A stretch of DNA of 48,921 nt from IMG/VR virus record IMGVR_UViG_2778261394_000010. One strand, written 5' to 3'. Positions within the stretch are counted from its first letter, which is position 1. Each line of letters opens with the position of its first letter. Under the pieces are notes generated by a model. That model did no database searches. It had not been told where the DNA came from and worked only from the letters and a program-made list of their open reading frames with translations. The position numbers and the translations under genes are program-made. Source of the stretch: a virus. Lineage: Duplodnaviria; Heunggongvirae; Uroviricota; Caudoviricetes. Shown piece by piece: positions 5,073 to 22,967 of the stretch.

Positions 5073-7630
5073 CGTCCACCTCCGGAGAACAGGCCACCAT
5101 CACGCATCTGTGTCTGAATTTCATCACGGGCACCCTTGCGGGCCATGTCATACACCGCCTTCAGAGCAGCCGGACCTATCTGCCCGTTCGTGCCGTCGTT
5201 GTTAATCACCACATGGTTATTCTGCTCAAACGTCCCGGACGCCTGCGACCGGCTGTCTGCCATGCTGCCCGGTGTACCGACATAACCGCCGGTGGCATAG
5301 CCGCGCATCAGCCGGTAAAGATTCCCCACGCCAATCCGGCTGGTTGCCTCCTTCGTGAAGACAAACTCACCACGGTGAACAATCCCCGCTGGCTCATATT
5401 TGCCGCCGGTTCCCGTAAATCCTCCGGTTGCAAAATGGAATTTCGCCGCAGCGGCCTGAATGGCTGTACCGCCTGACGCGGATGCGCCGCCACCAACAGC
5501 ACCGCCAATGGCGCTGCCGATACTCCCGACAATCCCCACCATTGCCTGCTTAAGCAGAATTTCTGTCATCATGGACAGCACGGAACGGGTGAAGCTGCGC
5601 CAGTTCTGCTCACTGCCGGTCAGCATCGCCGCCATATTCTGTGCAATACCATCAAAGGTCTGCGTGGCTGCACTTTTTACCTGCGACATACTGTCCGTGG
5701 CGCTCTCTTCCCACTCACTCCAGCCGGACTTCAGGCCTGCCATCCAGCTCCCGCGAAGCTGGTCTTCAGCCGCCCAGGTCTTTTTCTGCTCTGACATGAC
5801 GTTATTCAGCGCCAGCGGATTATCGCCATACTGTTCCTTCAGGCGCTGTTCCGTGGCTTCCCGTTCTGCCTGCCGGTCAGTCAGCCCCCGGCTTTTCGCA
5901 TCAATGGCGGCCCGTTTTGCCCGTTGCTGCTGTGCGAATTTATCCGCCTGCTGCGCCAGCGCGTTCAGGCGCTCCTGATACGTAACCTTGTCGCCAAGTG
6001 CAGCCAGCTGGCGTTTGTACTCCAGCGTCTCATCTTTATGCGCCAGCAGGGATTTCTCCTGTGCAGACAGCTGGCGACGTTGCGCCGCCTCCTCCAGTAC
6101 CGCGAACTGACTCTCCGCCTTCCACAAATCCCGGCGCTGCTGGCTGATTTTCTCATTTGCTCCGGCATGCTTCTCCAGCGTCCGGAGTTCTGCCTGAAGC
6201 GTCAGCAGGGCAGCATGAGCACTGTCTTCCTGACGATCGCCCGCAGACACCTTCACGCCGGACTGTTTCGGCTTTTTCAGCGTCGCTTCATAATCCTTTT
6301 TCGCCGCCGCCATCAGCGTGTTGTAATCCGCCTGCAGGATTTTCCCGTCTTTCAGTGCCTTGTTCAGTTCTTCCTGACGGGCGGTATATTTCTCCAGCGG
6401 CGTCTGCAGCCGTTCGTAAGCCTTCTGCGCCTCTTCGGTATATTTCAGCCGTGACGCTTCGGTATCGCTCTGCTGCTGCGCATTTTTGTCCTGTTGAGTC
6501 TGCTGCTCAGCCTTCTTTCGGGCGGCTTCAAGCGCAAGACGGGCCTTTTCACGATCATCCCAGTAACGCGCCCGCGCTTCATCGTTAACAAAATAATCAT
6601 CCTTGCGCAGATTCCAGATGTCGTCTGCTTTCTTAAACGCAGCCTCTGCCTTAATCAGCATCTCCTGCGCGGTATCAGGACGACCAATATCCAGCACCGC
6701 ATCCCACATGGATTTGAATGCCCGCGCAGTCCTGTCTGCCCAGGTCTCCAGCGTGCCCATGTTCTCTTTCAGGCGGCGGGTCTGGTCATCAAACCCTTTC
6801 GTTGCGGCCTCGTTCGCCGCCTGCAATGCCCCGGCTTCATCGCCGGAACGCTGCAACTGAGCAACATACGCAATCTGCTCCGCCGTCACGTTATGGAACT
6901 GGCGTGCCATCACCGTCAGCCCCGACGTCGGGTCTGTGGTCAGCTTCCCGAAGGCTTCAGCGACCTTGTCCACCTCCACGCCGGATGCAGAGGAGAAACG
7001 CGCCACACTCTGGCTGATGGACGCAATCTGAGCCTCACCGCTTACCCCCGCCTTAACCAGTGCGCTGAGTGACTCGCTGGTCTGGTTAAACGTCAGCCCT
7101 GCCGCCTGCCCGGCTCTGGACAAGACCAGCATACGATCTGCCGTCAGTCCCGCCTGATTGCCGGAAAGGACCAGCGTTTTGTTGAAATCGGACAGGGTTG
7201 AGTTGCCCTGATACCAGGCATACGCCAGCGCACCGGTCGCCACCGCCAGCGAGGTGGCCCCCACCATCGGCAGGGTGATCGCACCGGCAAGCCCCCTGAA
7301 CATGGGGATCATCCCGCCGAAGGAGTCCTTCACCTGCCCCCCCTGTTGCAGCAGGATCAGCCACGGACTTTGCCCGCCTGCAAGCTGCGTGGCCACGTCG
7401 GTGAACTGTGCAGGCAGCATACGCATGCCGGCTTTATACTGCCCGACGGAAATCCCCGCTTTCTGTGCAGCCAGCGCCTGTCGGCTCAGCGACTGTTCAA
7501 CGACTGCCGCTGTTTTTTTCGCATCACTTTCCGTACCGAAAAAATGACGCCTGACTCTGGCCATCTGCTCGTCAAATCTGGCCGCATCCAGACTCAAATC
7601 AACGACCAGATCGCCTACCGGTTCAGCCAT
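5069..7630 (-). CDS. H: Tail tape measure protein H
   Basis: 853-aa ORF, coiled-coil rich, with the glycine-rich segment GGAVGGGASASGGTA; same length and position as lambda gpH. Confidence 0.95.
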   Translation of the reverse strand: MAEPVGDLVVDLSLDAARFDEQMARVRRHFFGTESDAKKTAAVVEQSLSRQALAAQKAGISVGQYKAGMRMLPAQFTDVATQLAGGQSPWLILLQQGGQVKDSFGGMIPMFRGLAGAITLPMVGATSLAVATGALAYAWYQGNSTLSDFNKTLVLSGNQAGLTADRMLVLSRAGQAAGLTFNQTSESLSALVKAGVSGEAQIASISQSVARFSSASGVEVDKVAEAFGKLTTDPTSGLTVMARQFHNVTAEQIAYVAQLQRSGDEAGALQAANEAATKGFDDQTRRLKENMGTLETWADRTARAFKSMWDAVLDIGRPDTAQEMLIKAEAAFKKADDIWNLRKDDYFVNDEARARYWDDREKARLALEAARKKAEQQTQQDKNAQQQSDTEASRLKYTEEAQKAYERLQTPLEKYTARQEELNKALKDGKILQADYNTLMAAAKKDYEATLKKPKQSGVKVSAGDRQEDSAHAALLTLQAELRTLEKHAGANEKISQQRRDLWKAESQFAVLEEAAQRRQLSAQEKSLLAHKDETLEYKRQLAALGDKVTYQERLNALAQQADKFAQQQRAKRAAIDAKSRGLTDRQAEREATEQRLKEQYGDNPLALNNVMSEQKKTWAAEDQLRGSWMAGLKSGWSEWEESATDSMSQVKSAATQTFDGIAQNMAAMLTGSEQNWRSFTRSVLSMMTEILLKQAMVGIVGSIGSAIGGAVGGGASASGGTAIQAAAAKFHFATGGFTGTGGKYEPAGIVHRGEFVFTKEATSRIGVGNLYRLMRGYATGGYVGTPGSMADSRSQASGTFEQNNHVVINNDGTNGQIGPAALKAVYDMARKGARDEIQTQMRDGGLFSGGGR

Positions 7631-11011: not shown

Positions 11012-11802
11012 TTACGCCAGTTGTACGGACACGAACTCATCAGGGTCAGCCAGCAGCATCAGCGGTGCTGACTGAATCATGGTGAACTCACGCGCCGGAT
11101 CGCCGGTGGTCACCCAGTTTTTCGGGTAACGGGCAGAGGCGTTAATGCCTTCGCGCTGTGCGTCCGCATCCTGAATGCAGCCATAGGTGCGCAGACCGCG
11201 TGCCTGAGTGTTCCCCAGCACCATCGTGTTGTCCGGCAGGAAGTTCTTTTTGACGCCGTTTTCCACGTACTGTCCGGAATACACGACGATGGCCACATCG
11301 CCATACATCCCCTTATAGGACACCGCTTTACCTAGGTCTTTCACCGCTGTCTCCAGCTCGGAATTAGAGCCACGACGGGTATCCAGCTTTTCCTTGACGG
11401 CTTTGAAGGAACGGAACAGCGCCCAGCCTTTCGGATCAAACACGATGATATTCACCACACCGCTGGCGTTCAGCGCGTAGGCTTCGATATCGTCGGTCGG
11501 GTCATACGTGGACTTGTCACGCTTGCTCCACTCCGTGCCGCCGGACTGCGTGATGTTATTCTCCTCACTGCGGCCCATATCCACCTCAACCGGATCGAAG
11601 GCTTCACCGGTCATGGTGTATTTGCCCTTAAGCACGGCAGAAACTGCCTGCATCTCTTCGACCTGAGCAATGGCCAGCTCTTCGTCACGCATGTTCTGCA
11701 TGATGATGCGACGGCGGCGGTAAGCCGGGTCCGCCAGATTCTGCGGATCTTCATCCGGCAGGCGACGCAGGGTCATCTGCGGATTCACTTCATGCTTCGG
11801 CT
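11012..11802 (-). pseudogene. E: Major capsid protein E, 3' fragment (codons ~83-341), separated from its 5' part by the inserted element
   Basis: Frame reads …PKHEVNPQMTLRRLPDEDPQNLADP… to the normal E C-terminus (…DEFVSVQLA); an in-frame TAG immediately upstream at 11801-11803 marks the insertion junction. Confidence 0.9.
11793..11802. repeat. Left junction core of inserted element (TGCTTCGGCT; rc AGCCGAAGCA)
   Basis: Identical 10-mer recurs at 22723..22732; E-derived sequence is continuous across the two copies once the intervening 10.9 kb is removed. Confidence 0.85.
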
Positions 11803-11874
11803 ACATGAGTCAAATATGAAAGGAACTGAATGATTTTTAATGAAATAAATGGCTCTCTCTATCAAAATACAGCT

Positions 11875-11900
11875 AAAAAGCAATACACGTAGCAATACAG
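11875..11900. repeat. 26-bp terminal direct repeat, left copy (aaaaagcaatacacgtagcaatacag)
   Basis: Near-identical copy (aaaaagcaatacaagctgcaatacag) at 22570..22595 just inside the right junction; contains tandem GCAATACA half-sites. Confidence 0.6.
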
Positions 11901-11929
11901 CGCTTCGCAAAGGTATGTCACTATATCTA

Positions 11930-12865
11930 CTAGTGCCAACCAGAATACGAATATCTTTGCTTTGCTTCTTCTGGGCTCATACCCACTAGTAAAGATACTA
12001 ATTCAAAGTCAGGTTGTGGAATTGGAATCAATGCAGCCAAATATGCTGGCTTATTGAGAACAATTGTTGATAATTTAGCTTTATTCACCTTAGATAACTC
12101 AATATTACTTTCCGCCACCTTCGGGAACTCCATAATAAATGAATTAATTTCCCTTATGAGATAATCGATCAACGCCACTATACTTTCTGTCAAATCAATA
12201 TATTTTGACAACTCACTAGCACCAATTTCTTTCTTTATTTCATCCAATTTAATTTCAAACACTGGCTTGTCTTTACTGGCAATATTAGACAAACGTTTCT
12301 TTAAATCTGAATCAAGCTGATTCCTGACAATTAAACTTTTCAAAACAAAATTATAATTAAACAAAAAAGCATCAATTCGAGCAATATTCCTCCATGAGTT
12401 TCCAATTTCTTCATCTGACGGCATAATAAGTTCATGTTTTAGTATCTTGTACTTAATAAAAAAAACAAACCTCTCAAATAGAGATTTATTAGCTGTGGGT
12501 ATCTTTTTTATAAATGAAAGACGGCTAATATCGTAATTCACCTCCCCGGCGTTAAATAAAAATTCATTTATTGCCAGCGCTCTTAATATCGGATTTCTAG
12601 ATCTCAAACCAATATAACTACTTTTAATTCCCACAAGTGTATTTATCATCTGAAAAGAAACCATCATAAGCGTATTAGCAGAATTAAATTTCTCCGTTTC
12701 TATTTTAATCTTCTCTTGCCTATTATTGATGTAATAAGCAGTTAAGCCTCCCATAAGCGCCGATAAAAAAGATAATGCAATAGGGAATACATAATCTTTT
12801 GTATAATCAACATCTGCTTTCAACATTAGTATTGCTTTAGCAATCAAAACTGCATCAGGGGTCAT
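11930..12865 (-). CDS. Hypothetical protein, AT-rich cargo gene with a predicted N-terminal transmembrane segment
   Basis: Long ORF with low-GC codon usage unlike its neighbours; hydrophobic stretch YVFPIALSFLSALMGGLTAYYI; no recognisable motif. ATG at 12865 preferred over the TTG at 12895 used by the ORF track. Confidence 0.5.
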   Translation of the reverse strand: MTPDAVLIAKAILMLKADVDYTKDYVFPIALSFLSALMGGLTAYYINNRQEKIKIETEKFNSANTLMMVSFQMINTLVGIKSSYIGLRSRNPILRALAINEFLFNAGEVNYDISRLSFIKKIPTANKSLFERFVFFIKYKILKHELIMPSDEEIGNSWRNIARIDAFLFNYNFVLKSLIVRNQLDSDLKKRLSNIASKDKPVFEIKLDEIKKEIGASELSKYIDLTESIVALIDYLIREINSFIMEFPKVAESNIELSKVNKAKLSTIVLNKPAYLAALIPIPQPDFELVSLLVGMSPEEAKQRYSYSGWH

Positions 12866-13565
12866 GTTAGAGCCGTCATTAAAAATTAAACACAATACCC
12901 ATAAAATATAACAGCTTATTGTTTAGAAAAGCAATATCATACACTCTATGATAAGCGTAATATCTGACAGGCATGGTGTGTTACGACACTTAATTAAACG
13001 TAATTTGCTAAAATTTTACACACAGAATCACACCTGGCTCTAACTCTCCTTTCATTACAATTGTAAGCATACAATTATCCTACCAGAACTTTATTGTTGA
13101 GCTCTCCCTTTTGAGCCCATCCCATAATGAATTGACGAAAGAACCGTATCTGTGGAGTAATCATTTCTGCGCGGTTCTATGTCGAAGACAAAATGTGGTA
13201 TGCGCATCTAGTCAGAGGGAAAGCAATTTTTCAGGGAAATATCATCTCTACATGGTTAAGACAACCAGAAGAAGTTATCAAGCAAGTTGGGTATGAAGAT
13301 TTTCCTATAATAGTAACGAAACGGGTTTCACCTGAGCGGTTGTGTTCGATCCGCCACAATACGCATAGGATGCCCTGTAATCCGTATTCTGCTTACTCAA
13401 CAGCTTACCAGCAGGACTCGTAAGGCTGTTGCGATAGTGCAGAAGTAGGCCACGACCATAAAGTGAAGCCAGTGGCGCGTTATCGACTACTTTAGTGTAG
13501 AGCCTGATTTCAACGCAAGCATGAGAGTTTTTTCTGGCGATAGGCCGTGACAAACAGCAACAAAA

Positions 13566-13766
13566 TCAGAGAAAGGAAACGGCAGAGGCCAAAAAGCCCG
13601 TTTTCAGCGCCTGTCATTTCCTTTCTTTTCAGAGGGTATTTTAAATAAAAACATAAAGTTACGGCGAAGAAGAACGGAAACGCCTTAAACCGGAAAATTT
13701 CCATAAATAGAGAAAAACTGCGCGCCTGACGCCCCGTAGCCTGTCAGATCGCCGGAAAGGACCCGC
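13566..13766. other. cos-like site of the inserted element, homologous to the helper cos region but with a diverged cosN 12-mer
   Basis: About 200 bp aligns without gaps to helper 28935..29133 (most positions identical by eye); the cosN position reads cgcctgacgccc (13723..13734) against helper aggtcgtcgccc. Confidence 0.8.
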
Positions 13767-13790
13767 CAGCCAGAGCGGGCCCTAATTTCA

Positions 13791-14174
13791 TCAACCAATC
13801 AGCTTATAGCGACCATCCCGTGCATTGCGGCGTACACGCTCAATCTTGAGGCATAGCGCCGCATCTGGCTTTTTTGGGACAGGTACGCGGCAATATTCAG
13901 AAGCGCGAGGAATATTATTTATCCAGTCGATCACTTCACTTAAATACCAGGCCTTACGCCCTTCCGTAACCTGCACACGCTCCGGGAACTCTCCACTAGC
14001 CTCAAGGTTTAGCAGTGTACGCCGACTCAGGGTTGTAATTTCCATCACCTGATTCATATCAACAAGGCGCTCGCTTAAACACATTTTGTCAGCGATAGCT
14101 TTTAATTCCTCTACAGCTGGATTCGGGTACATCATTTCGGCAATTGGCTTAAGGTCATTGTAATCATTCTGCAT
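13791..14174 (-). CDS. HTH protein with an AlpA/MerR-like C-terminal half, function unknown (regulator or packaging-specificity factor)
   Basis: 127-aa ORF; segment EITTLSRRTLLNLEASGEFPERVQVTEGRKAWYLSEVIDWI resembles AlpA-family HTH; strong SD AAGGGGG; immediately downstream of the D-like gene and upstream of the cos-like site. Confidence 0.55.
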   Translation of the reverse strand: MQNDYNDLKPIAEMMYPNPAVEELKAIADKMCLSERLVDMNQVMEITTLSRRTLLNLEASGEFPERVQVTEGRKAWYLSEVIDWINNIPRASEYCRVPVPKKPDAALCLKIERVRRNARDGRYKLIG

Positions 14175-14185
14175 TGTATCCCCCT

Positions 14186-14527
14186 TTACACACGAGCCAG
14201 CGGCTGAACAGAAATACCTGAGCCAACAAACGCGGCAACCTTTGCCGACAGTTCTCTTACAGACTCAGGCCAGTTCAGAGCATCAACATTTAAAACACCT
14301 GTCTTATAAACCTGTGCCTGTGTTTTTTTCGCTGTGTCGATTTGTACAGCGGAAACATAAACCGCTTTGCCTGCGCTCGTTCCATCCCATACCACTAGCG
14401 CACCAGTTGCATCTTCCTGCATCAGTGGCGTAAACGCAGGTATTACCCCTTTATTGGCTGAAAATATCCCCAGCGTAGTAACCAGTGCTTCAGTGCCAGA
14501 CATGAGTTCAGTGTAATGAGTAGCCAT
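14186..14527 (-). CDS. Head decoration protein, diverged gpD homolog carried by the element
   Basis: 113 aa; …AFTPLMQEDATGALVVWDGTSAGKAVYVSAVQ… parallels lambda gpD …[35 protein letters not shown]…; strong SD AAGGGGGAG. Confidence 0.7.
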   Translation of the reverse strand: MATHYTELMSGTEALVTTLGIFSANKGVIPAFTPLMQEDATGALVVWDGTSAGKAVYVSAVQIDTAKKTQAQVYKTGVLNVDALNWPESVRELSAKVAAFVGSGISVQPLARV

Positions 14528-14536
14528 TGCTCCCCC

Positions 14537-15577
14537 TTAGCCAATGCGAACGGTAACAAAACGATTGATGCGGGCCGGTATTGGCTGTGGTGCTGAATGT
14601 GTCTGCACATATTCAATAGCCGGATCACCAGGCACAATATAGTTTTTCGGTGCAAGTTCGGCTTTAGTCAGCCCCATTCGGATTAGCTCCGGATCCTGAA
14701 TACCGCCATAGGCGACAATCCCCTGAAGAGCCGTATTGCCAAGCACCATCAAATCAGGATCAAGGAAATGTTTTTCAGTTCCGTCCTCGTCGGTATAACG
14801 CCCGCTGTATACAACAATCGCAACATCGCCCATATACCCTTTAAAACTCACCGAATCACCAAGGTCTTTAAGGGCCGTTTCCAGTTCGGAATTAGAACCA
14901 CGACGGGTATCCAGAGCCTCTTTTATCGCTCTGAATGAACGGTATTTCTTCCATACATTACCGCCCATAATGATGATATTAGTGACGCCCTCACTAAATT
15001 CTGCGTAGCTCTCAATATCATCATTTGGATCAAAAGTTTCTTTATCCTTACCTGACCACTCAGCACCGCCAGACTGAGTGATGATATTTTGTGGTTTAAT
15101 ATTCCAGTCCAGCTCATAACGTTCAATACCATCGCCCTCAATGATATTTTTCCCCGTTGTGATTGCCTGAACGGCAAGCCATTCAATACGTGCACGAATA
15201 GCTTTAGCCTGATTTACAATCGCCTGTTTAACTTTAATATTACGCGCTCCAAAAGCATTGTATTGCTCAGGTGATACACCAGCAGGGCGCACAGCTAACT
15301 TATTTGGATCAATGCTGCTTTTCGGCTTCATATAGCCTGGACGAATTGTTTTTGATTCGTACCCTTCGTCACGTGAAACTTTACTACCCACCATAGGAGA
15401 ACAAAACGCTGCAATTGGGATATTTGGATCGTCGATTGTATCAAGAATAATATCGCGCGATTCAAACATTACCGAGCGAGTAAAAAACAAACTGGTAAAC
15501 AACGCATTTAGTTGTTTTTGTACATCTACAGCATTAACCACCTGTACAAGCTGGGTAGGCGAATATAAATCAACCAT
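14537..15577 (-). CDS. Major capsid protein, diverged gpE homolog carried by the element
   Basis: 346 aa from ATG at 15577 (SD AAGAGGA); shares ITQSGG.EWS, TRRGSNSELET and GDVAIVVYSG motifs with lambda gpE but is clearly diverged; earlier in-frame starts at 15583 and 15598 are possible. Confidence 0.85.
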   Translation of the reverse strand: MVDLYSPTQLVQVVNAVDVQKQLNALFTSLFFTRSVMFESRDIILDTIDDPNIPIAAFCSPMVGSKVSRDEGYESKTIRPGYMKPKSSIDPNKLAVRPAGVSPEQYNAFGARNIKVKQAIVNQAKAIRARIEWLAVQAITTGKNIIEGDGIERYELDWNIKPQNIITQSGGAEWSGKDKETFDPNDDIESYAEFSEGVTNIIIMGGNVWKKYRSFRAIKEALDTRRGSNSELETALKDLGDSVSFKGYMGDVAIVVYSGRYTDEDGTEKHFLDPDLMVLGNTALQGIVAYGGIQDPELIRMGLTKAELAPKNYIVPGDPAIEYVQTHSAPQPIPARINRFVTVRIG

Positions 15578-15749
15578 ACGCATCCTCTTTGCATTCATTA
15601 AAAATAATTGTGGATATATGCTATCACCGATATTTGTCATGCGAATACATGCAACCGAGTGCAATGTTGTATAAAGTTTTGGGATGACAACTTCAGCACG
15701 GATAATTAGTGTTAATATCTTCACTCCCTTTGGTCTGGATTTATGTAGC

Positions 15750-15790
15750 ATGCCGGAAAATTTATTTTTTTTCCGGCCTTTTTTATTGGC
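15750..15790 (+). terminator. Hairpin with flanking T-tract (gccggaaaa…ttttccggc + ttttttatt)
   Basis: 9-bp perfect stem followed by a T-run on the plus strand, between the SSB and capsid genes; may act in either direction given the flanking A/T tracts. Confidence 0.4.
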
Positions 15791-15795
15791 AATAT

Positions 15796-16245
15796 TTAAA
15801 ACGGAATATCATCTCCCCATTGCTCATTATCTCCCACTGGTGGATGGCTTCCTTGCTGATCTGCCTGTTGTTTTGCTCTGTTCAGTGCGTCAGTAGCCTG
15901 ACCCTGTTGATCTTTTTTGCCGCCCGGTCGCACCGTTCGCGCACTGATTACGCTGTCTGCGATAACCTGCCAGCCCTGCCGCGTTTCACCGTTCTGTCCA
16001 GTCCACTGGCTCACCTGCATATTACCCGCCACGCTCAGGAGTTCGCCTTTGTGATGCTTTGCCAGCGTGTCGGCTTGTCTGCCAAACGCCAGCACAGATA
16101 ACCACATCGTCGCCGTTCCGTCATCTGCCTGGCTGCATGGCAAAGATACCGCCATCCGTGCCAGTGTCATGGGTGTTCCCTTGCTGGTATGTTTTACCTG
16201 TGGGTCGTCCACCAGCCGCCCGTAAGCTGCTATTTGCGCCGTCAT
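15796..16245 (-). CDS. ssb: Single-stranded DNA-binding protein
   Basis: 149 aa with Gly/Gln-rich linker and acidic C-terminal tail ending DDIPF, the SSB hallmark. Confidence 0.85.
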   Translation of the reverse strand: MTAQIAAYGRLVDDPQVKHTSKGTPMTLARMAVSLPCSQADDGTATMWLSVLAFGRQADTLAKHHKGELLSVAGNMQVSQWTGQNGETRQGWQVIADSVISARTVRPGGKKDQQGQATDALNRAKQQADQQGSHPPVGDNEQWGDDIPF

Positions 16246-16256
16246 GCTGCCTGCTC

Positions 16257-16499
16257 TCAGGACTTAATATTGATGGTTGTCACTTCCTCCGCTTCGGCAA
16301 TCTCCCGTTCGGTCAGCGTGGCAAAGTTTGCAGCCGCCGTTGTCATGAATGCGCTTATCAGTTCGGGATGTGCTTTCGCGTATCCTTCCCCGGCGTTGCG
16401 GTCTATTGCCTTAATCGCCACCCTTAGCCAGTGTTCAGCCATATCAAGGGCGCGGTAATGTGGCTTTATATGTTTGTTCAGTTTTCCTGATGTGTGCAT
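16257..16499 (-). CDS. Hypothetical protein
   Basis: 80-aa ORF between the iteron origin and ssb, co-oriented with the replication operon; no motif recognised. Confidence 0.4.
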   Translation of the reverse strand: MHTSGKLNKHIKPHYRALDMAEHWLRVAIKAIDRNAGEGYAKAHPELISAFMTTAAANFATLTEREIAEAEEVTTINIKS

Positions 16500-16546
16500 T
16501 TTTATTTTTACCCCCTCGTTTAAAAAGTTTTTTGTGCACCACCACC

Positions 16547-16777
16547 TTGTCTACCTTGTCTACCTGATTAGTTATCAGGCCAGTAATGGCGCGGGTTTCA
16601 GGGAGGTAGACAGCCCCAAATAGCTGTCTACCTCATCTCTACCCGTCTCCTTACCTGTCTACAAAAATGGGTAGATAAGGTAGATAACAGGTAGACAGTG
16701 AAAAATAGTTATCTACCTGCATTAATACATTGAAATAAAAGCATTTTATTTCAGTCAGGTAGACAAGGTAGATAACC
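16547..16777. repeat. Iteron cluster, putative replication origin of the element
   Basis: At least 12 copies of GGTAGAYA / TRTCTACC in both orientations, some tandem (ggtagataaggtagataacaggtagacag), with AT-rich spacers, immediately downstream of the primase-helicase gene. Confidence 0.7.
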
Positions 16778-16788
16778 ATTGCCATTTT

Positions 16789-18540
16789 TTATAAAAACGC
16801 ATCGCAATCATCAGTAGTCGTTGCGTTGGTCTGCGTGACTCCCTTAACTTTTCGCGTAATATATTCATATCCGTAAACTTTCGCCGCTGACCTCATAGCC
16901 TTTCCGAACTCATTCACGCTCAAACATTTCCCCTTTCCTGTATATGCCATGAAGGCCATATAGACACGGTAAAGGCTGTTTCTGGTCGTGTACTTCACGG
17001 TGTCACCACCACCGCCCATCATTAGCCCACGAGCTTCCTCCAGAAACTCCAGCGCCGCGCAAAGCTCAACAACCGGATCCGTTTGCTGCTTTATTGCCAG
17101 AGCTTCATCACCGTCACGCTGTTCCAGTAATAAAGCCCGTGCCTTTTCAGGGTCAGCAAAATTAGCCAGCAAGCGGCGGATAATTACGGGGATTTCTGCC
17201 GCTATCTTTTCCGGTAATTCCTTGTCTTTTTCGTCCTCCCTTACAATGTTGTCGAACCGGAAAATCACCCGACGGCGTGACACACCTCCGGCCCGTTCGG
17301 TAAAGATCATCGGGTCGTTATTGGTTGCCAGTACCACCGCCCTTATTATCGTCGTGAATCGCTTCTCATATTTCGGGTTAATTTCAACGGGATCGCCTCC
17401 CGTGATTTTCTTGATGCCCGTGCCTTCCCCCGTATATTTCGGCTGATCGGCAAGGACGATAAGACGACTCCCGACAACCTGCGCACGCCCTCCTGCATCA
17501 TCGAGTGATGTCATCTCTGCGCTTACGGTGTTCTGTTTGCCAGCAAGCAGGGTGGCAATATGGGTAAATGTACTCTTACCGCTTCCCCCGTCTCCGGTGG
17601 CCTCAATGAACATCTGCCAGTCGTACCGGTTCGCCATAATCATGTACAGCGCGGCACATATACGCATCATCTTGCGCGGGTCTTTTCCGGCTGCGTGCTC
17701 AAGCCATTTATGAAAGTTTGGCGCGTTATCGCGGATGTTCTCCCCTGGTGCTGGTGGCGTGTACTCAATGCCGTTGTGCGTGGTGATCCAGTTCTCCGGC
17801 GTGTGCGGGGAAAATTCCCCCGTTTTCAGGTCAAGCGCACCATTGGCGAACGGCAGCAAATCGCCGGACGGCTCGCCCATTGGTTCGGCAATAACTTTTA
17901 ACGCTTCAACGGCGTTATTGATCACGCGTTTGCTGAAAGTGGCCCTGTGCTCTGAATAGATCGCCACCATTTCGCGGCTCAGCTCCATTGTGCTGATCGG
18001 ACACCATACCCCGCCGCGCCATACGTGAACGATTTCACTTTCCGGATGCACACAAACGCCATCAAAGCGCTCGGCAAGCAGCTGCGCGCGCTCACTGTCT
18101 GCCATCTGTGAAAGTTGCGCCTTTTGCTTCGTCGGAAGATTAAGCACCAGGCTTTCCCCACGCTCGCATTCCTCTTTGAGTCGCGGCAACTGGTCGGATA
18201 AATCCACTGGGCTGGTGTCAGTAATCCCCGCGTATTCGTGTACGGTCTTCACTCCAGCCACAGCCAGTAACGTAACAATCTGCGTCATGCTGTGCTCTGT
18301 GATATGTCCTGCGCGGTAAACACGCACACACTGACGATCTTCATCAATGATCCGGTAATCGGTGATGTTTTTCAGTTGCTCATCAGCCAACACGACAGGC
18401 GGCACATCGTCGGCGGCAATATGTTTACCCGCCCATTCCTGCCACTCTTTCGCATGGCTCCACGCATCACTACCTGCAAAGATGATTATCTCTGTCAGTC
18501 TGTCGCGTGGCTGTTTTTTTAAGTTCGGTGCCAGTTTCAT
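16789..18540 (-). CDS. Primase-helicase replication protein (P4-alpha / D5-like, SF3 helicase)
   Basis: 583 aa; Walker A GDGGSGKST followed by a D5_N/SF3-like region (…IVLADQPKYTGEG…LATNNDP…); adjacent to the iteron origin. Confidence 0.85.
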   Translation of the reverse strand: MKLAPNLKKQPRDRLTEIIIFAGSDAWSHAKEWQEWAGKHIAADDVPPVVLADEQLKNITDYRIIDEDRQCVRVYRAGHITEHSMTQIVTLLAVAGVKTVHEYAGITDTSPVDLSDQLPRLKEECERGESLVLNLPTKQKAQLSQMADSERAQLLAERFDGVCVHPESEIVHVWRGGVWCPISTMELSREMVAIYSEHRATFSKRVINNAVEALKVIAEPMGEPSGDLLPFANGALDLKTGEFSPHTPENWITTHNGIEYTPPAPGENIRDNAPNFHKWLEHAAGKDPRKMMRICAALYMIMANRYDWQMFIEATGDGGSGKSTFTHIATLLAGKQNTVSAEMTSLDDAGGRAQVVGSRLIVLADQPKYTGEGTGIKKITGGDPVEINPKYEKRFTTIIRAVVLATNNDPMIFTERAGGVSRRRVIFRFDNIVREDEKDKELPEKIAAEIPVIIRRLLANFADPEKARALLLEQRDGDEALAIKQQTDPVVELCAALEFLEEARGLMMGGGGDTVKYTTRNSLYRVYMAFMAYTGKGKCLSVNEFGKAMRSAAKVYGYEYITRKVKGVTQTNATTTDDCDAFL

Positions 18541-18836
18541 TTTTTGCCCCTGAATGCGTTAATCATGCTTTTCATTTTCTGGATGTTTCCCCGCGCTTTT
18601 TCCCTGCTGATGGGCTTACTGCGGGGTGCGGCATATACCAGGGAAAAATCACGCCGGAACTGATAAACAGGCATCACGCAGTCATAGCTATACCCCTCAC
18701 GACGGTAAGTGATGCGCCGTTCTGCCACGCCTTTAATCGTTACCGTGCCGCCGTATTTATCGCGGTAAATATCGCCGTTCATAAATTCAGGCCGAGCGGG
18801 GCCGCTGGCAATAAAGCCAGAATTTTTCATTTCCAT
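18537..18836 (-). CDS. Hypothetical protein
   Basis: 99-aa ORF whose stop overlaps the primase-helicase start (4-nt overlap), suggesting translational coupling. Confidence 0.4.
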   Translation of the reverse strand: MEMKNSGFIASGPARPEFMNGDIYRDKYGGTVTIKGVAERRITYRREGYSYDCVMPVYQFRRDFSLVYAAPRSKPISREKARGNIQKMKSMINAFRGKK

Positions 18837-18853
18837 ATTATTTATTCCTCGAC

Positions 18854-19075
18854 TTAACTCGACTTATTTGATAGCAGGGCACTATTTATTGCGTCATTGA
18901 GTTTTTCTGCTGCTTCATCAATAAGTGACAACAGGCCATAAGCAATATTTGCATCTTCATTGTCATTTATGCAATCAAGCCACATATTTAATATTGCTTT
19001 TGCTGAATTATTTAAAGTTAATGAACTTTCTGCACATGCTAACAATTTAAAAAAGACTTCCCGTTCTGTATTCAT
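18854..19075 (-). CDS. Hypothetical small protein (AT-rich)
   Basis: 73-aa ORF in the same operon; low GC. Confidence 0.3.
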   Translation of the reverse strand: MNTEREVFFKLLACAESSLTLNNSAKAILNMWLDCINDNEDANIAYGLLSLIDEAAEKLNDAINSALLSNKSS

Positions 19076-19267
19076 TTAATCCCCCACCAGCTTACTTTCT
19101 TCCTCAATCAAAAAACTAGCGACACTTCCCGAAAGACGCGCCAGTAGGCTCGCCAGTGCGGATATATCAGCATCTGTAATTTTGTTCGGGTATACCTCAA
19201 GAAGGCGGCAAATAATTTCTGTCTGGTGCGCACGTTCAGCGGCTTCGTGTAATGTGATTTCCTGCAT
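19076..19267 (-). CDS. Hypothetical small protein
   Basis: 63-aa ORF tightly packed between neighbours. Confidence 0.3.
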   Translation of the reverse strand: MQEITLHEAAERAHQTEIICRLLEVYPNKITDADISALASLLARLSGSVASFLIEEESKLVGD

Positions 19268-19452
19268 TAATGCACCTCTTTTAATTCATACACTGCTGAA
19301 ATAATGACTTGTGATAAGCCATATTCTGATGATTCGCTTCTCACCGCAGCAATAGCCGTCTGAACATTAACAGCCTTCACATTCTGAGCGATACCAATTG
19401 TGTGGCCTATTGGGTTAACAGCTCGGGCAAATACACGGAAGGTTTTAAGCAT
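19267..19452 (-). CDS. Hypothetical small protein, first gene of the element's leftward operon
   Basis: 61-aa ORF directly downstream of the divergent control region. Confidence 0.3.
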   Translation of the reverse strand: MLKTFRVFARAVNPIGHTIGIAQNVKAVNVQTAIAAVRSESSEYGLSQVIISAVYELKEVH

Positions 19453-19832
19453 GACTCACTCCCTGGCGGATTTTTGCAGCGAATACAGCAACACAACCGG
19501 ACGGGCAACGGCTACGCGCTTCGCGTTCCGTCCAGGCGGTTACGTGGATGATTTGAGATTCTCCGGCACTCAGTGCCAGAAAACGCCACACAAAGGCCGT
19601 TTGTGTGTGTACAAGGTGTGGTATATGATTTACAGCAACCATAACGGCTCCTAGTTTACGTTGTTGGTTAGACGCCCCGTATGTGTTCCCAGCACTGCGG
19701 GGCGTTGCTCTTTGTATTTCAACAATCCTTTCGGTGTGTTTCATGTTATGAGCGCATGAAACACACGTCAAGGCTTTTTGTATTTCTTTTTTTGTGTATA
19801 CTGAAACACACCGATGATTAGGAGTTTCAGAA

Positions 19833-20138
19833 ATGGCAACGGCTAACAAAAACGCAAAATCACAACTGACAACTGTCAGAGTCCCACTAGATGTTATGCA
19901 AGGGATGGAATCCGTTAAGCTGGACGGTGAAAGCAATGCCGGATTTATCGTAACCGCCATGCGCGGTGAAATCGCCCGCCGCCAGGCAGAAGGAAGCGGA
20001 GAAAATCCCCTCGTGTCTTCACTGGATACCTTAGCTAAGGTCGAACAAATCGGCATCAAGGCAGCGGAGGAAATCGGGCAACTCGTAGCCGTCGCTCGTG
20101 AAGAACTCCAGCGGCGTAAAGCCAAAGAATCTGAATAA
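19833..20138 (+). CDS. Putative regulator of the element, fold not assigned
   Basis: 101-aa ORF with strong SD AGGAG, transcribed divergently from the replication/capsid operon across a structured intergenic region. Confidence 0.4.
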   Translation: MATANKNAKSQLTTVRVPLDVMQGMESVKLDGESNAGFIVTAMRGEIARRQAEGSGENPLVSSLDTLAKVEQIGIKAAEEIGQLVAVAREELQRRKAKESE

Positions 20139-20488
20139 TTAGTATCAGCGCCGTGATGTGAGTAACTACGGCGCATTGCTATGTAAATACTGGCAATAAA
20201 CAGAAAAGGTAGTTCTACTCCGAATAATTTTATCTGACACTACTCCTGAACTAACATGCGCTTATCTTACAGGATATAAATATAAATCCATAAAATCACG
20301 ATTAAATAAAGTCGCTCCAAACATAAACCACACCCAACGCTTAACAAGATAGCAACAAACAGGTAAATAACTTGCAGAAATATTTATCGCAAGGATTATC
20401 ATTATTAATGACAAATCACTTTACCAAGTCATTCCCCTCTCTTATCATAAAGAGAAAGTAATAAATAAGTTAAGGGAGTTAGAATGCT

Positions 20489-21025
20489 ATGAATCTAAAA
20501 AAAATAGCCACAAACACAAAAAACAAGATAACAGAAACATTTAATAAACTTATATTAGAGGCATCTAAAACCCCCACACAAGATGAAATTAAAATACTTG
20601 AGAGAAGGAGTAAGAAGTTTAATTACTCCTTTTTCTCATACGCAGTCACAGGAGCTATAATAGTTTTTTGCTCTCAACCATTAATTAAATACGCAAACCC
20701 AATACTTATTTTATTGAGTGGTCTGTTACTGTCTATCATCATTATCATTCTCAGAATGATTTATATTTCACAAGCGAATGCATCATGGACAACCAAAAAA
20801 CGCTCACATGTACTAGTTCATTTTCTTTCTGCATGTTTCATAGCATCAACATTGACGTTGCTATATCAGGCTTACGATAATAACATCACACACAAATTGT
20901 ACTGTAAAAATATACAACAACTTATTGAAAAAAGGATAGAAACAGAAAAAAACATCAGCATATTCAGTGGGATGCAATGCACCCCGGTATATGATTACTC
21001 TTTATTTGGATTTAATCTCTTATAA
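20489..21025 (+). CDS. Hypothetical membrane protein, AT-rich cargo gene
   Basis: 178 aa with hydrophobic segments (AVTGAIIVFCSQPLI, ILILLSGLLLSIIIIIL); very low GC; followed by a perfect 13-bp inverted repeat. Confidence 0.5.
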   Translation: MNLKKIATNTKNKITETFNKLILEASKTPTQDEIKILERRSKKFNYSFFSYAVTGAIIVFCSQPLIKYANPILILLSGLLLSIIIIILRMIYISQANASWTTKKRSHVLVHFLSACFIASTLTLLYQAYDNNITHKLYCKNIQQLIEKRIETEKNISIFSGMQCTPVYDYSLFGFNLL

Positions 21026-21034
21026 AGAATGTTA

Positions 21035-21068
21035 TTACTGATTTGAGTACAAATTCTCAAATCAGTAA
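21035..21068. terminator. Perfect 13-bp inverted repeat (ttactgatttgag / ctcaaatcagtaa), probable bidirectional terminator
   Basis: Lies between the convergent cargo gene (+) and the AlpA gene (-), flanked by A/T runs. Confidence 0.5.
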
Positions 21069-21094
21069 TTCATAATATTTTATTCTGAGATAAT

Positions 21095-21331
21095 TTAAAC
21101 TACCCACTCACCTCGAATCCATGCCTGCACTTCTGAAAGACGATATGCAACAGCAGTGGAACCAATCTTGATCCGCTTAGGAAATTTTCCTTCCTTCTCC
21201 AGCTTCCAGCGTGTGCTGTTCGCAAGAGTGGTTAGCTCCCGACATTCTTTCTCACGGATCATTCGGTCAATGTTAGGAATGTACTCCAGACCCTTTTTAT
21301 CAACAATTGCCATTTTTTTCATGTTAACCAA
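21095..21331 (-). CDS. alpA: AlpA-family HTH regulator / excisionase-like protein
   Basis: 78 aa; ELTTLANSTRWKLEKEGKFPKRIKIGSTAVAYRLSEVQAWI fits the AlpA/Xis HTH_17 pattern; immediately downstream of the integrase. Confidence 0.75.
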   Translation of the reverse strand: MVNMKKMAIVDKKGLEYIPNIDRMIREKECRELTTLANSTRWKLEKEGKFPKRIKIGSTAVAYRLSEVQAWIRGEWVV

Positions 21332-22559
21332 CCTTTTGTTTGAGGATTGTCACTTTTGAATCAGCACCTGCGATGCTATTGAGATATGTAGTCCAGAGTT
21401 CCAGAGCATCCAGTTTTTTAGCCATAAACTTACTCCGGTTGTAAACACCTGCCACGCCAGGTAGCGCATGGCCTAACAGTTGTTCTACTACATAAAATTC
21501 AACACCGAGATCACTTAGATGAGTAGATAGCGTTCTTCTAAGGTCGTGTAGTGACCATTGTTTTTCATGGCCCAAACGTTTACCGATTTTCCCCCCAATC
21601 TTGCTTACGCTTTCTCTAATTCGCAGACTTCCCAGCACATAACCAGTATGTTTTGTCTCTTCGTGAACATCCGTTACCCACTGTCGTAGAATTTCAGGTA
21701 CTGGTCTGACGATTTCAACACCAGTTTTTGAGTGATCTTTTGGTACAGTCCAAACCCAACTTTCGAGATCCCATTCGCTCCATTCTGATAATCGGGCTTC
21801 ACTCATTCGACATCCAAATACTGTACAAAGCACAAACATTTTTCGCGTGTATTCAGACATTAGTTTTAAATCAGGCTCGACAAAAATTGCCTTCCAGAGC
21901 TGGCCGAGTTCGGCTTCATCCAGAACCCGATCCCGCTTACCTGCAATCTGCCCCACATCACTCATGCGCAAATCCTTTAAAGCATCACACGTCGCGTACT
22001 GGCGTACCCGACAAAAACGAAGAGCTAATTTAGTGTCAGAAAAAACATACGCCGCCATAACTGGTGCATTACGTTTAATTCGGTCAAAACAGTCCAGCCA
22101 TTCATATAGGTGAGTGTCATTTACGGGCAAATGACCGATATAGGGAAAGATATGCTTTCGAAATCTGCCAAGCGTTACAGCATGAGTTTTACGACGCACC
22201 TTACAGTAATTTTCATACCAGTAATTTAGTGCATCCTCCACTGTAACCGGCTTTAAGCGTTCTTCAGCCTGAATCTTAATCTGGATACGCGGATCACGTT
22301 TGTCAGCCAACCAACCACGGCACTCGTCGCGCTTTTCCCTTGCCTGTTTGAGTGACATATCAGGATATTTACCCAACGTTAGCCAGACCGGAGCAGCCCG
22401 GCCACCTGCTAACCTGTAGAAGAAAACAAAGCTCACAGCCCCTTTAGTACTCACACGAATAGAAAGCCCCTTTCCATCAGCAATGGTGATCTGCTTTTCT
22501 CTGGGTTTCCCCAGATATCCTTTAAGCGCTTTGTCGCTCAGTTTGTTCTCGCCAGCCAT
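21324..22559 (-). CDS. int: Tyrosine integrase (P4-type) of the inserted element
   Basis: ATG at 22559 gives MAGENKLSDKALKGYLG…; C-terminal catalytic region with …HDLRRTLSTHLSDLGV…LLGHA…; about 160 bp from the right junction core. Confidence 0.9.
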   Translation of the reverse strand: MAGENKLSDKALKGYLGKPREKQITIADGKGLSIRVSTKGAVSFVFFYRLAGGRAAPVWLTLGKYPDMSLKQAREKRDECRGWLADKRDPRIQIKIQAEERLKPVTVEDALNYWYENYCKVRRKTHAVTLGRFRKHIFPYIGHLPVNDTHLYEWLDCFDRIKRNAPVMAAYVFSDTKLALRFCRVRQYATCDALKDLRMSDVGQIAGKRDRVLDEAELGQLWKAIFVEPDLKLMSEYTRKMFVLCTVFGCRMSEARLSEWSEWDLESWVWTVPKDHSKTGVEIVRPVPEILRQWVTDVHEETKHTGYVLGSLRIRESVSKIGGKIGKRLGHEKQWSLHDLRRTLSTHLSDLGVEFYVVEQLLGHALPGVAGVYNRSKFMAKKLDALELWTTYLNSIAGADSKVTILKQKVG

Positions 22560-22569
22560 TTTTAGCCCC

Positions 22570-22595
22570 AAAAAGCAATACAAGCTGCAATACAG
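22570..22595. repeat. 26-bp terminal direct repeat, right copy
   Basis: aaaaagcaatacaagctgcaatacag, matching the left copy at 11875..11900 at 24 of 26 positions by eye. Confidence 0.6.
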
Positions 22596-22722
22596 AGATG
22601 ATTGCAACACACAGATAACGAGGAAAATTCAGTGAAAGCACCAGATAAACTTATTCTTTATTATCAAAAGATTAAGTGTAAAAACCAGCAACTACACGAA
22701 AGCCTCAGAAAGCCATGCTAAG

Positions 22723-22732
22723 TGCTTCGGCT
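22723..22732. repeat. Right junction core of inserted element (TGCTTCGGCT)
   Basis: Second copy of the 10-mer; on the minus strand E reads …GTC AAG CCG AAG CAC and then diverges into element sequence (LAWLSEAFV stop). Confidence 0.85.
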
Positions 22733-22967
22733 TGACGTATCCCGGCGTAAATTCAGAGGTGGAGCCGCCACGGGAACGGATAACCTCACCGGAAACAATC
22801 GGCGAAACGTACAGCGCCATGTTTACCAGTCCCGGAATTTGTGAGAGATAGACTTTCTCCGTGGTGAAGGGATAGCTCTCACGGAAAAAGAGACGCAGAA
22901 ACAGCGGATCAAACTTAAATTTCTGCTCATTTGCCGCCAGCAGTTGGGCGGTTGTGTACATCGACAT
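22723..22967 (-). pseudogene. E: Major capsid protein E, 5' fragment (codons 1-82)
   Basis: ATG at 22967 gives MSMYTTAQLLAANEQKFKFDPLFLRLFFRESYPFTTEKVYLSQIPGLVNMALYVSPIVSGEVIRSRGGSTSEFTPGYVKPKH, the lambda gpE N-terminus, then runs into the element. Confidence 0.9.

Follow-up and report, generated by a model that had tools for sequence, protein, structure and literature searches.

What are the two near-identical repeats that lie just inside both ends of the satellite carried by this prophage, and which protein reads them? The window, that is the whole stretch of 48,921 bp analysed here, is a lambda-like prophage that adjoins ybhC and is co-linear with E. coli MN06021; we take the ybhC neighbourhood to be the classical lambda attB region. 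The late genes of the prophage are on the minus strand. A satellite bounded by a 10-bp identity block is inserted among them and splits the capsid gene E, with the following layout:

11801..22721, minus strand: helper-embedded PICI satellite (capE type), ~10.9 kb, in the same orientation as the late genes of the prophage
11012..11800, minus strand: C-terminal fragment of the prophage major capsid gene E
22722..22967, minus strand: N-terminal fragment of the prophage major capsid gene E, which reads on into the satellite in the direction of int
11791..11800, unstranded: left copy of the 10-bp attL/attR identity block tgcttcggct (minus-strand AGCCGAAGCA), the crossover region
22722..22731, unstranded: right copy of the 10-bp identity block tgcttcggct
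21324..22559, minus strand: tyrosine integrase gene (int), 411 aa, with PF13356 Arm-DNA-bind_3 (E 3.7e-19) and PF00589
21095..21322, minus strand: alpA (Phage_AlpA/HTH_17), Pfam PF05930 (E 3.1e-15)

The satellite genes are all co-oriented with the late genes and encode Int, AlpA, an Icd-like protein, a DUF4222 protein and a D5/DUF5906 primase, to which are added an SSB, an E-like capsid protein of its own, a D-like decoration protein, a second AlpA-like regulator and a low-GC cargo gene. The alpA gene directly follows int, and its product is a candidate excision/activation factor. The second AlpA-like HTH gene and the satellite's own lambda E-like capsid and D-like decoration genes occupy 13791-14174 and 14186-15577. 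In the gap 3' of the primase gene, an iteron array of direct and inverted GGTAGACA/GGTAGATAA (16547-16780) is likely the replication origin of the satellite. A search of the satellite against Rfam returned no RNA family.

By using the satellite plus ~100 bp of flanking E gene on each side as a query, we found at least 80% of it covered in 47 complete E. coli genomes, with variation at the cargo end only. The cargo gene (11930-12865), next to the distal arm motif described below, has no Pfam domain and lies in DNA of ~32% GC (12001-13000). Near-identical elements of other E. coli strains have DUF262/HEPN or DUF2971 genes annotated within the matched region, and the 11930-12865 segment is likely the part left uncovered in those strains. 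The cargo position beside the distal arm motif therefore looks like a variable hotspot, with a content that is probably defence-related.

The initial annotation had pointed to near-identical 26-bp direct repeats near both ends of the element, each with tandem half-sites, and both features were recovered. As read on the plus strand, the left repeat AAAAAGCAATACACGTAGCAATACAG (11875-11900) and the right repeat AAAAAGCAATACAAGCTGCAATACAG (22570-22595) are identical at 23 of 26 positions (88%, according to a repeat-family listing of the window) and are in the same orientation. They lie 75 bp inside the left core and 127 bp inside the right core, in line with the ~75 and ~130 bp first estimated. 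Each of them consists of two exact GCAATACA octamers spaced by 12 bp from start to start (starts 11880/11892 and 22575/22587). The minus strand carries int and the prophage late genes, and read on it the half-site is TGTATTGC, so that the four exact octamers form two doubled motifs, cTGTATTGCtacgTGTATTGCt and cTGTATTGCagctTGTATTGCt, made of tandem TGTATTGC with a 12-bp period:

11875..11900, minus strand: distal (cargo-side) doubled motif, minus-strand CTGTATTGCtacgTGTATTGCTTTTT; half-sites 11880-11887 and 11892-11899
22570..22595, minus strand: int-proximal doubled motif, minus-strand CTGTATTGCagctTGTATTGCTTTTT; half-sites 22575-22582 and 22587-22594
22603..22610, minus strand: possible third, degenerate half-site TGTGTTGC, one mismatch, 16 bp from the second half-site

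Since int starts with an ATG at 22559 (minus strand), the right repeat stops 10 bp upstream of this codon. The putative third half-site is weak because it has two mismatches in the related Kosakonia and Cedecea elements.

One concern raised at the outset was that such a motif might recur by chance elsewhere in the genome. We searched both strands of the 48,921 bp with a pattern made of the positions common to both 26-mers, allowing up to three mismatches, and found it at two places only, which are the two repeats, where 100 dinucleotide-preserving shuffles gave an expectation of 0. The GCAATACA octamer alone occurs 10 times in the window compared to 2.0 expected (maximum 6 in 100 shuffles). 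Its six single occurrences outside the arms (1899, 15259, 30417, 31129, 42023 and 47061), none of which is doubled, are possibly due to chance; within the satellite there is one such single octamer besides the arms, in the capsid gene. The octamer scan of the window did not find a doubled motif in the int 3' region.

This arrangement has a published precedent. Tommasini, Mageeney & Williams (2023, NAR Genom Bioinform 5:lqad036; PMC10111431) described helper-embedded PICIs (HE-PICIs), the type element of which, Eco567.11capE of E. coli NRG857c, is an 11-kb satellite inserted in the capsid gene of a lambda-like prophage. With a 10-bp identity block in gene E, 11capE was found by experiment to excise precisely after induction of the helper (PMC10111431). 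The same study reported the motif tgTGTATTGCantgTGTATTGCa as two co-oriented copies per element, with one 81±2 bp upstream of the attP centre and the other 132±2 bp downstream, shared by 491 HE-PICIs and unique to them, being absent from fis PICIs; Int arm domains, AlpA or a DNA-binding protein not yet known were named as candidate binders (PMC10111431). Measured from the middle of the identity block to the nearer edge of each octamer pair, the distances in the window are 84.5 and 132.5 bp, a small offset from the published ones that depends on how the centre and the motif edge are defined. The window satellite fits the HE-PICI type, since it sits in the late gene E and the minus strand carries int and alpA as well as the late genes. 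It has in common with 11capE the motif tgTGTATTGCantgTGTATTGCa, its co-orientation and its distances from the attP centre, the gene set (int, alpA, icd-like, primase and own E and D homologues) and the target, a 10-bp block in a lambda-like capsid gene E. Apart from the left-end cargo gene, which differs among strains, and the location of the helper prophage (beside ybhC in the window, icd in the 11capE comparison), nothing essential distinguishes them. The window integrase is also 100% identical to a protein cluster of 1098 members. Because motif and geometry match those of PMC10111431, ours is a rediscovery, and both the arm-repeat motif and the satellite type are already known. The initial annotation likewise arrived at a reading that the authors of that paper had put forward as a possibility. 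A literature search for the octamer returned this paper alone in a relevant context.

The initial annotation had called for a check of the motif in related elements. By searching contigs for the integrase, we obtained three loci, one of them truncated, which is enough for a footprint and too few for an outgroup. The integrase relatives of Kosakonia (88% identity) and Cedecea (83%) belong to elements inserted in E-like capsid genes of other prophages, and both elements have the doubled motif at both ends. The int-side arm is ~90% conserved throughout and is thus uninformative as a footprint. The cargo-side arm is only 72% identical between E. coli, Kosakonia and Cedecea, and the cargo of Cedecea is unrelated. 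Despite this divergence, both octamers and their 12-bp spacing are invariant in the cargo-side arm, where the conservation island is made of the octamer pair and the core-adjacent TTGACTCATGTA. The repeats had also been proposed to back the boundaries of the satellite: their layout fits the published HE-PICI attP, and the Kosakonia and Cedecea elements are bracketed in the same way.

Beyond these close relatives, the motif is invariant in the HE-PICI subclades inserted at portal, terminase and ClpP protease genes, whose Int proteins are 49-57% identical to that of the window. A scan of viral contigs for TGTATTGCNNNNTGTATTGC gave at least 118 loci, ~75 of which encode proteins related to the satellite or the prophage, the other ~43 being without homology to window proteins (chance matches or unknown contexts); as a motif-based scan is biased by design, we used it only for the diversity within the TGTATTGC class. 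In contrast, the integrase relatives considered next were collected without regard to the motif, from a protein search and contig look-ups that also supplied the outgroup. A distant blastn of int against E. coli genomes returned the terminase and ClpP protease HE-PICI groups and no fis PICI.

The int start codon is preceded at a short distance by a doubled motif of 12-bp period in almost every full-length relative collected in this way, and the sequence of this motif depends on the clade. At least five such motifs were seen:

Class A, half-site TGTATTGC: all HE-PICI subclades and two Salmonella PICIs; several different late genes as targets
Class B, half-site TGTATCAC: Klebsiella-type fis PICIs; target fis
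Class C, half-site TGTATAAAC: a second fis clade; target fis
Class D, half-site TGTAGTCT: one locus (L207); target fis
Class E, half-site TGGGGTAC: one locus (L172)

One of the two class-A Salmonella PICIs (L128) is chromosomal, next to plsY. Two loci (L171 and L208) have no clear motif upstream of int. In every class-A integrase relative examined, the doubled motif starts 33-71 bp upstream of the ATG. When the class-A loci within 1.37 Mb of sequence gathered by Int homology alone were screened for stray doubled TGTATTGC with up to one mismatch, no opposite-strand or off-position copy was found, with the single exception of a contig in attP form. In the portal-targeting HE-PICI subclade (L037, L012, L163-L166), the doubled motif is further from the ATG (~-70) and is followed by a third, single TGTATTGC ~30 bp before int, so that this arm has three half-sites, within ~72 to 20 bp upstream of int. 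In E. coli 90-9280 (L125, ~6972-27400), an HE-PICI is inserted inside the ClpP-protease/capsid fusion gene of another PICI, which itself sits at a tRNA-Ile gene; the distal doubled motif of this HE-PICI has one mismatch. Such an "HE-PICI in a PICI" arrangement has been described previously (PMC10111431).

The second copy of the motif was also found outside HE-PICIs. Five class B elements (L126, L193, L195, L196 and L200) have a co-oriented distal copy at ~10.6 kb, the two doubled motifs of L126 being at 7113-7132 and 17828-17847. The integrated class C loci showed no distal copy within 11.2 kb, probably because these elements are longer, and a class C contig in attP form (L180) supplied one. 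This contig (4200-4570) and its class A counterpart L144 (6430-6795), the element of which is near-identical to the window satellite, are metagenome contigs with both doubled motifs ~235 bp apart around a core; by their layout, they are excised circles or tandem copies of a fis PICI and of a capE-type HE-PICI, respectively. The distance from pair to pair (start to start) is 236 bp for the reconstructed attP of the window (a 342-bp sequence), 235 bp for L144 and 233 bp for both L126 and L180. A fis core common to classes B, C and D is found at -181 to -200 relative to the ATG. One fis core thus goes with three arm motifs and one class-A motif goes with several cores, which is the modularity expected of heterobivalent integrases. 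The heterogeneity of the fis motifs could also account for the absence of a motif from the single alignment of fis attPs made in the 2023 study. On this sequence evidence, the doubled-motif architecture extends, with clade-specific sequences, to fis-targeting relatives published as motif-free (the motif loci noted outside HE-PICIs being L126, L174-L194 and L207, plus L172), which is the modest new element of our analysis.

What reads the half-sites? We consider that the four TGTATTGC half-sites, two per arm, are probably the arm-type sites of the satellite's heterobivalent tyrosine integrase, with a probability of roughly three in four given the sequence comparisons that follow. Int has an N-terminal arm-binding domain (approximately residues 1-92, nt 22284-22559), recognized by PF13356. 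Residues 17-98 match the solved arm-binding domains PDB 3JTZ and 3JU0 (phmmer E 2e-5 and 2e-4), and AlphaFold predicts a sheet-plus-helix fold (helix 9-15; strands 24-27, 32-36, 42-48 and 58-65; helix 70-85; mean pLDDT 82.5). The repeats themselves are present on both arms, ~84 and 132 bp from the core, and TGTATTGC is unrelated to the core sequence AGCCGAAGCA.

We then compared how Int and AlpA vary with the motif. Within class A, the N-domain of Int (1-92) has a median identity of 68% (minimum 58%) compared to 47% (minimum 39%) for the rest of Int, and, for the AlpA whose gene adjoins int, identity goes down to 27%, with differing recognition helices, e.g. ANSTRWKLEKEG, GRRHRALLEKEG and SRRIRVDMEIKG; class-A counts are inflated by redundancy, and classes D and E are single loci. 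Conversely, L172 (TGGGGTAC) and L174 (TGTATAAAC) are 78% identical in AlpA and 81% in the rest of Int, for 62% in the N-domain. For L206 (TGTATCAC) and L207 (TGTAGTCT), the rest of Int is 87% identical and the N-domain 67%, and the AlpAs of L206, L207 and L199 are 61-65% identical for different motifs. A second AlpA paralog, found in some class-A elements, shares 67% identity with the AlpA of class C (TGTATAAAC). Taken over all these comparisons, a single motif occurs with AlpAs that are 27-50% identical and different motifs occur with AlpAs that are 61-78% identical, so that AlpA does not co-vary with the motif.

The identity of the whole N-domain was dropped as a predictor of motif class, because its within- and between-class distributions overlap: the minimum within class A is 58% and the maximum between A and non-A is 61%, and two TGTATCAC elements have N-domains that are 68% identical, for 67% in a TGTATCAC/TGTAGTCT pair. 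Because of this overlap, we relied on the specific pairs above and on class-specific residues, defined as conserved in at least 95% of class A and present in at most 5% elsewhere. Eight residues of Int fit this definition, four of which (Q23, F44, W59 and R91) fall within the 92-residue N-domain, although some clade-specific residues are expected from shared ancestry alone since the motif classes coincide with integrase clades. In non-class-A sequences, F44 is replaced by W in 29/29 and W59 by R in 27/29. In the AlphaFold model, F44 is in strand 42-48, W59 in strand 58-65 and Q23 directly before strand 24-27. Under the same definition, AlpA has no class-specific residue. Together, these correlative comparisons suggest that the motif type is independent of AlpA and fits the arm-binding domain of Int better, via clade-specific residues of its beta-sheet.

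The doubled motifs could instead be sites of AlpA, acting as directionality factor and/or activator, whose binding to tandem repeats would remodel attL and attR for excision. The AlpA family comprises winged-helix relatives of excisionases (Xis/TorI family) that bind tandem direct repeats, and in the satellite alpA comes immediately after int. Besides, alpA is required for excision and circularisation of the PICI EcCIMP1 (PMC11773190), and AlpA is among the binders proposed in PMC10111431. Binding of AlpA could also be co-operative, next to or over Int sites. Against this, AlpA and motif types are uncoupled in both directions, down to the second paralog of class-A elements that resembles the AlpA of TGTATAAAC elements, and not a single AlpA residue is class-specific. 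Directionality factors usually occupy one arm, whereas the motif is on both. Nor is there a doubled copy in the 3' region of int, which must contain the promoter of alpA. We therefore find it unlikely that AlpA is the reader, and of the two binders put forward by the initial annotation, integrase and AlpA, the comparison favours Int. A different protein, from the satellite, the helper phage or the host nucleoid, is quite unlikely, and so is a split role in which the proximal copy is an operator or leader element of int and the distal copy serves otherwise. PMC10111431 leaves room for such a binder, and the proximal copy is always immediately upstream of int. However, TGTATTGC, TGTATCAC and TGTATAAAC elements are spread over the same group of enterobacterial genera (e.g. 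Escherichia and Klebsiella), which argues against a shared host factor, and HE-PICIs keep one motif across lambda-like helpers, HK97-like helpers and another PICI, which argues against a factor of the helper. Apart from AlpA, Int alone adjoins the motif in every element examined, and its arm-binding domain would otherwise be left without an assigned site. The distal copy, for its part, occupies a 3' intergenic site where there is no gene for it to regulate, and keeps a fixed distance to the core.

That the repeats are a chance similarity, or the functionless leftover of a sequence duplication, has a negligible probability in our view. Short two-copy repeats are indeed common, many of them being listed at 70-80% identity in the window. 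Nevertheless, the shuffles predict no match to the pattern, both copies are kept across genera within diverged DNA, and the geometry is fixed in dozens of independent elements in addition to the 491 published HE-PICIs. This reading was rejected on conservation.

If Int is indeed the reader, the following mechanism can be proposed. In the excised circle, the doubled motifs would be ~236 bp apart (start to start), co-oriented and flanking the 10-bp crossover core. Each monomer of an Int tetramer would hold a core-type site through its core-binding and catalytic domains, and its N-terminal DUF4102/Arm-DNA-bind_3 domain would reach an arm half-site, such that the four half-sites would serve the four N-domains of the core-assembled tetramer. 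The loop would be closed by DNA bending, for which IHF bound at a consensus site of the long arm is the probable agent. After integration, the pairs would be split between attL and attR and reunited for excision, which would rebuild the capsid gene E. AlpA probably acts at other sites or through Int, for which a GAAAGCC repeat near the core would be a candidate site. This direct repeat (22698-22704 and 22708-22714) has a 10-bp period, and lies 8-24 bp from the core on the int side. Almost unchanged in the Kosakonia and Cedecea elements, it may serve as a core-proximal site for Int or as a site for AlpA. The candidate bending site is the following:

22662..22674, plus strand: perfect match to the IHF consensus, TATCAAAAGATTA, located between the core and the int-proximal motif

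The IHF consensus WATCAANNNNTTR has two matches in the 48.9-kb window, one of which is this site, in the long (132 bp) arm. It has one mismatch in Kosakonia and Cedecea, and the short arm is without a clear site. Bending by IHF at this position would let the long arm fold back onto the core.

As the int-proximal pair is located 10-36 bp ahead of the int start codon, bound Int would probably damp int expression, by analogy with the negative autoregulation exerted through arm-type sites over the int regulatory region in KplE1 IntS and, according to the same paper, P4 Int (PMC2951348). The sole sigma-70-like match in the promoter scan is weak and lies upstream of the int-proximal motif (22682-22653), with the IHF site overlapping its spacer. 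The motif would thus be in the 5' leader, off the -35/-10 hexamers, so that autoregulation via the proximal pair is weakly supported and is the weakest step of the mechanism. An operator over the promoter is unsupported for the int-proximal motif, since no promoter overlapping it came out of the scan. It has also been proposed that, in the integrated state, int can be read by read-through from the helper late operon (PMC10111431).

Several known recombination systems resemble this design. Lambda attP has five arm-type sites, P1, P2 and P'1-P'3, bound by the heterobivalent Int. In both lambda and the window satellite, attP measures ~240 bp and short repeats, partly in tandem, are placed far from the core on both arms, with a small N-terminal beta-sheet domain as reader and an IHF bending site between arm and core (both of these putative in the satellite). 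However, the arm domain of the satellite Int belongs to the DUF4102 / IntSXT-P4 type, which has an additional strand and helix, and the satellite has four half-sites as two pairs spaced by 12 bp instead of five sites. Unlike in lambda, the int gene is 5'-proximal to attP, which puts one pair of the putative arm sites in the int leader. The KplE1 IntS/TorI and P4 Int/Vis systems share with the satellite an int transcribed away from att and arm-type sites in the int regulatory region, but in the satellite the sole promoter-like match is upstream of the motif and repression is proposed by analogy. Finally, the integrases of the Yersinia HPI and Pectobacterium HAI7 islands (PDB 3JTZ and 3JU0) have an N-terminal domain homologous to that of the satellite Int, although sequence identity is low and the arm sites of the islands are different sequences.

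At the level of this satellite, the repeats independently confirm its boundaries and mark it as a capE-type helper-embedded PICI, the excision timing of which governs when the helper phage can make capsids. More broadly, the TGTATTGC pair could be one allele of a family-wide arm-site code of Gram-negative PICI integrases, read by the DUF4102 domain and with positions 44 and 59 setting specificity, a proposal that we see as evenly balanced between right and wrong; such a generalisation beyond HE-PICIs appears to be unreported. The constant geometry combined with clade-specific half-sites provides a simple sequence signature for delimiting PICI ends, as well as a natural set of matched arm-domain/arm-site pairs for tests of DNA reading by DUF4102 and for orthogonal integrase systems. 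If the proposed code is true, the three motifs found among fis-targeting satellites would insulate co-resident or tandem satellites from cross-excision.
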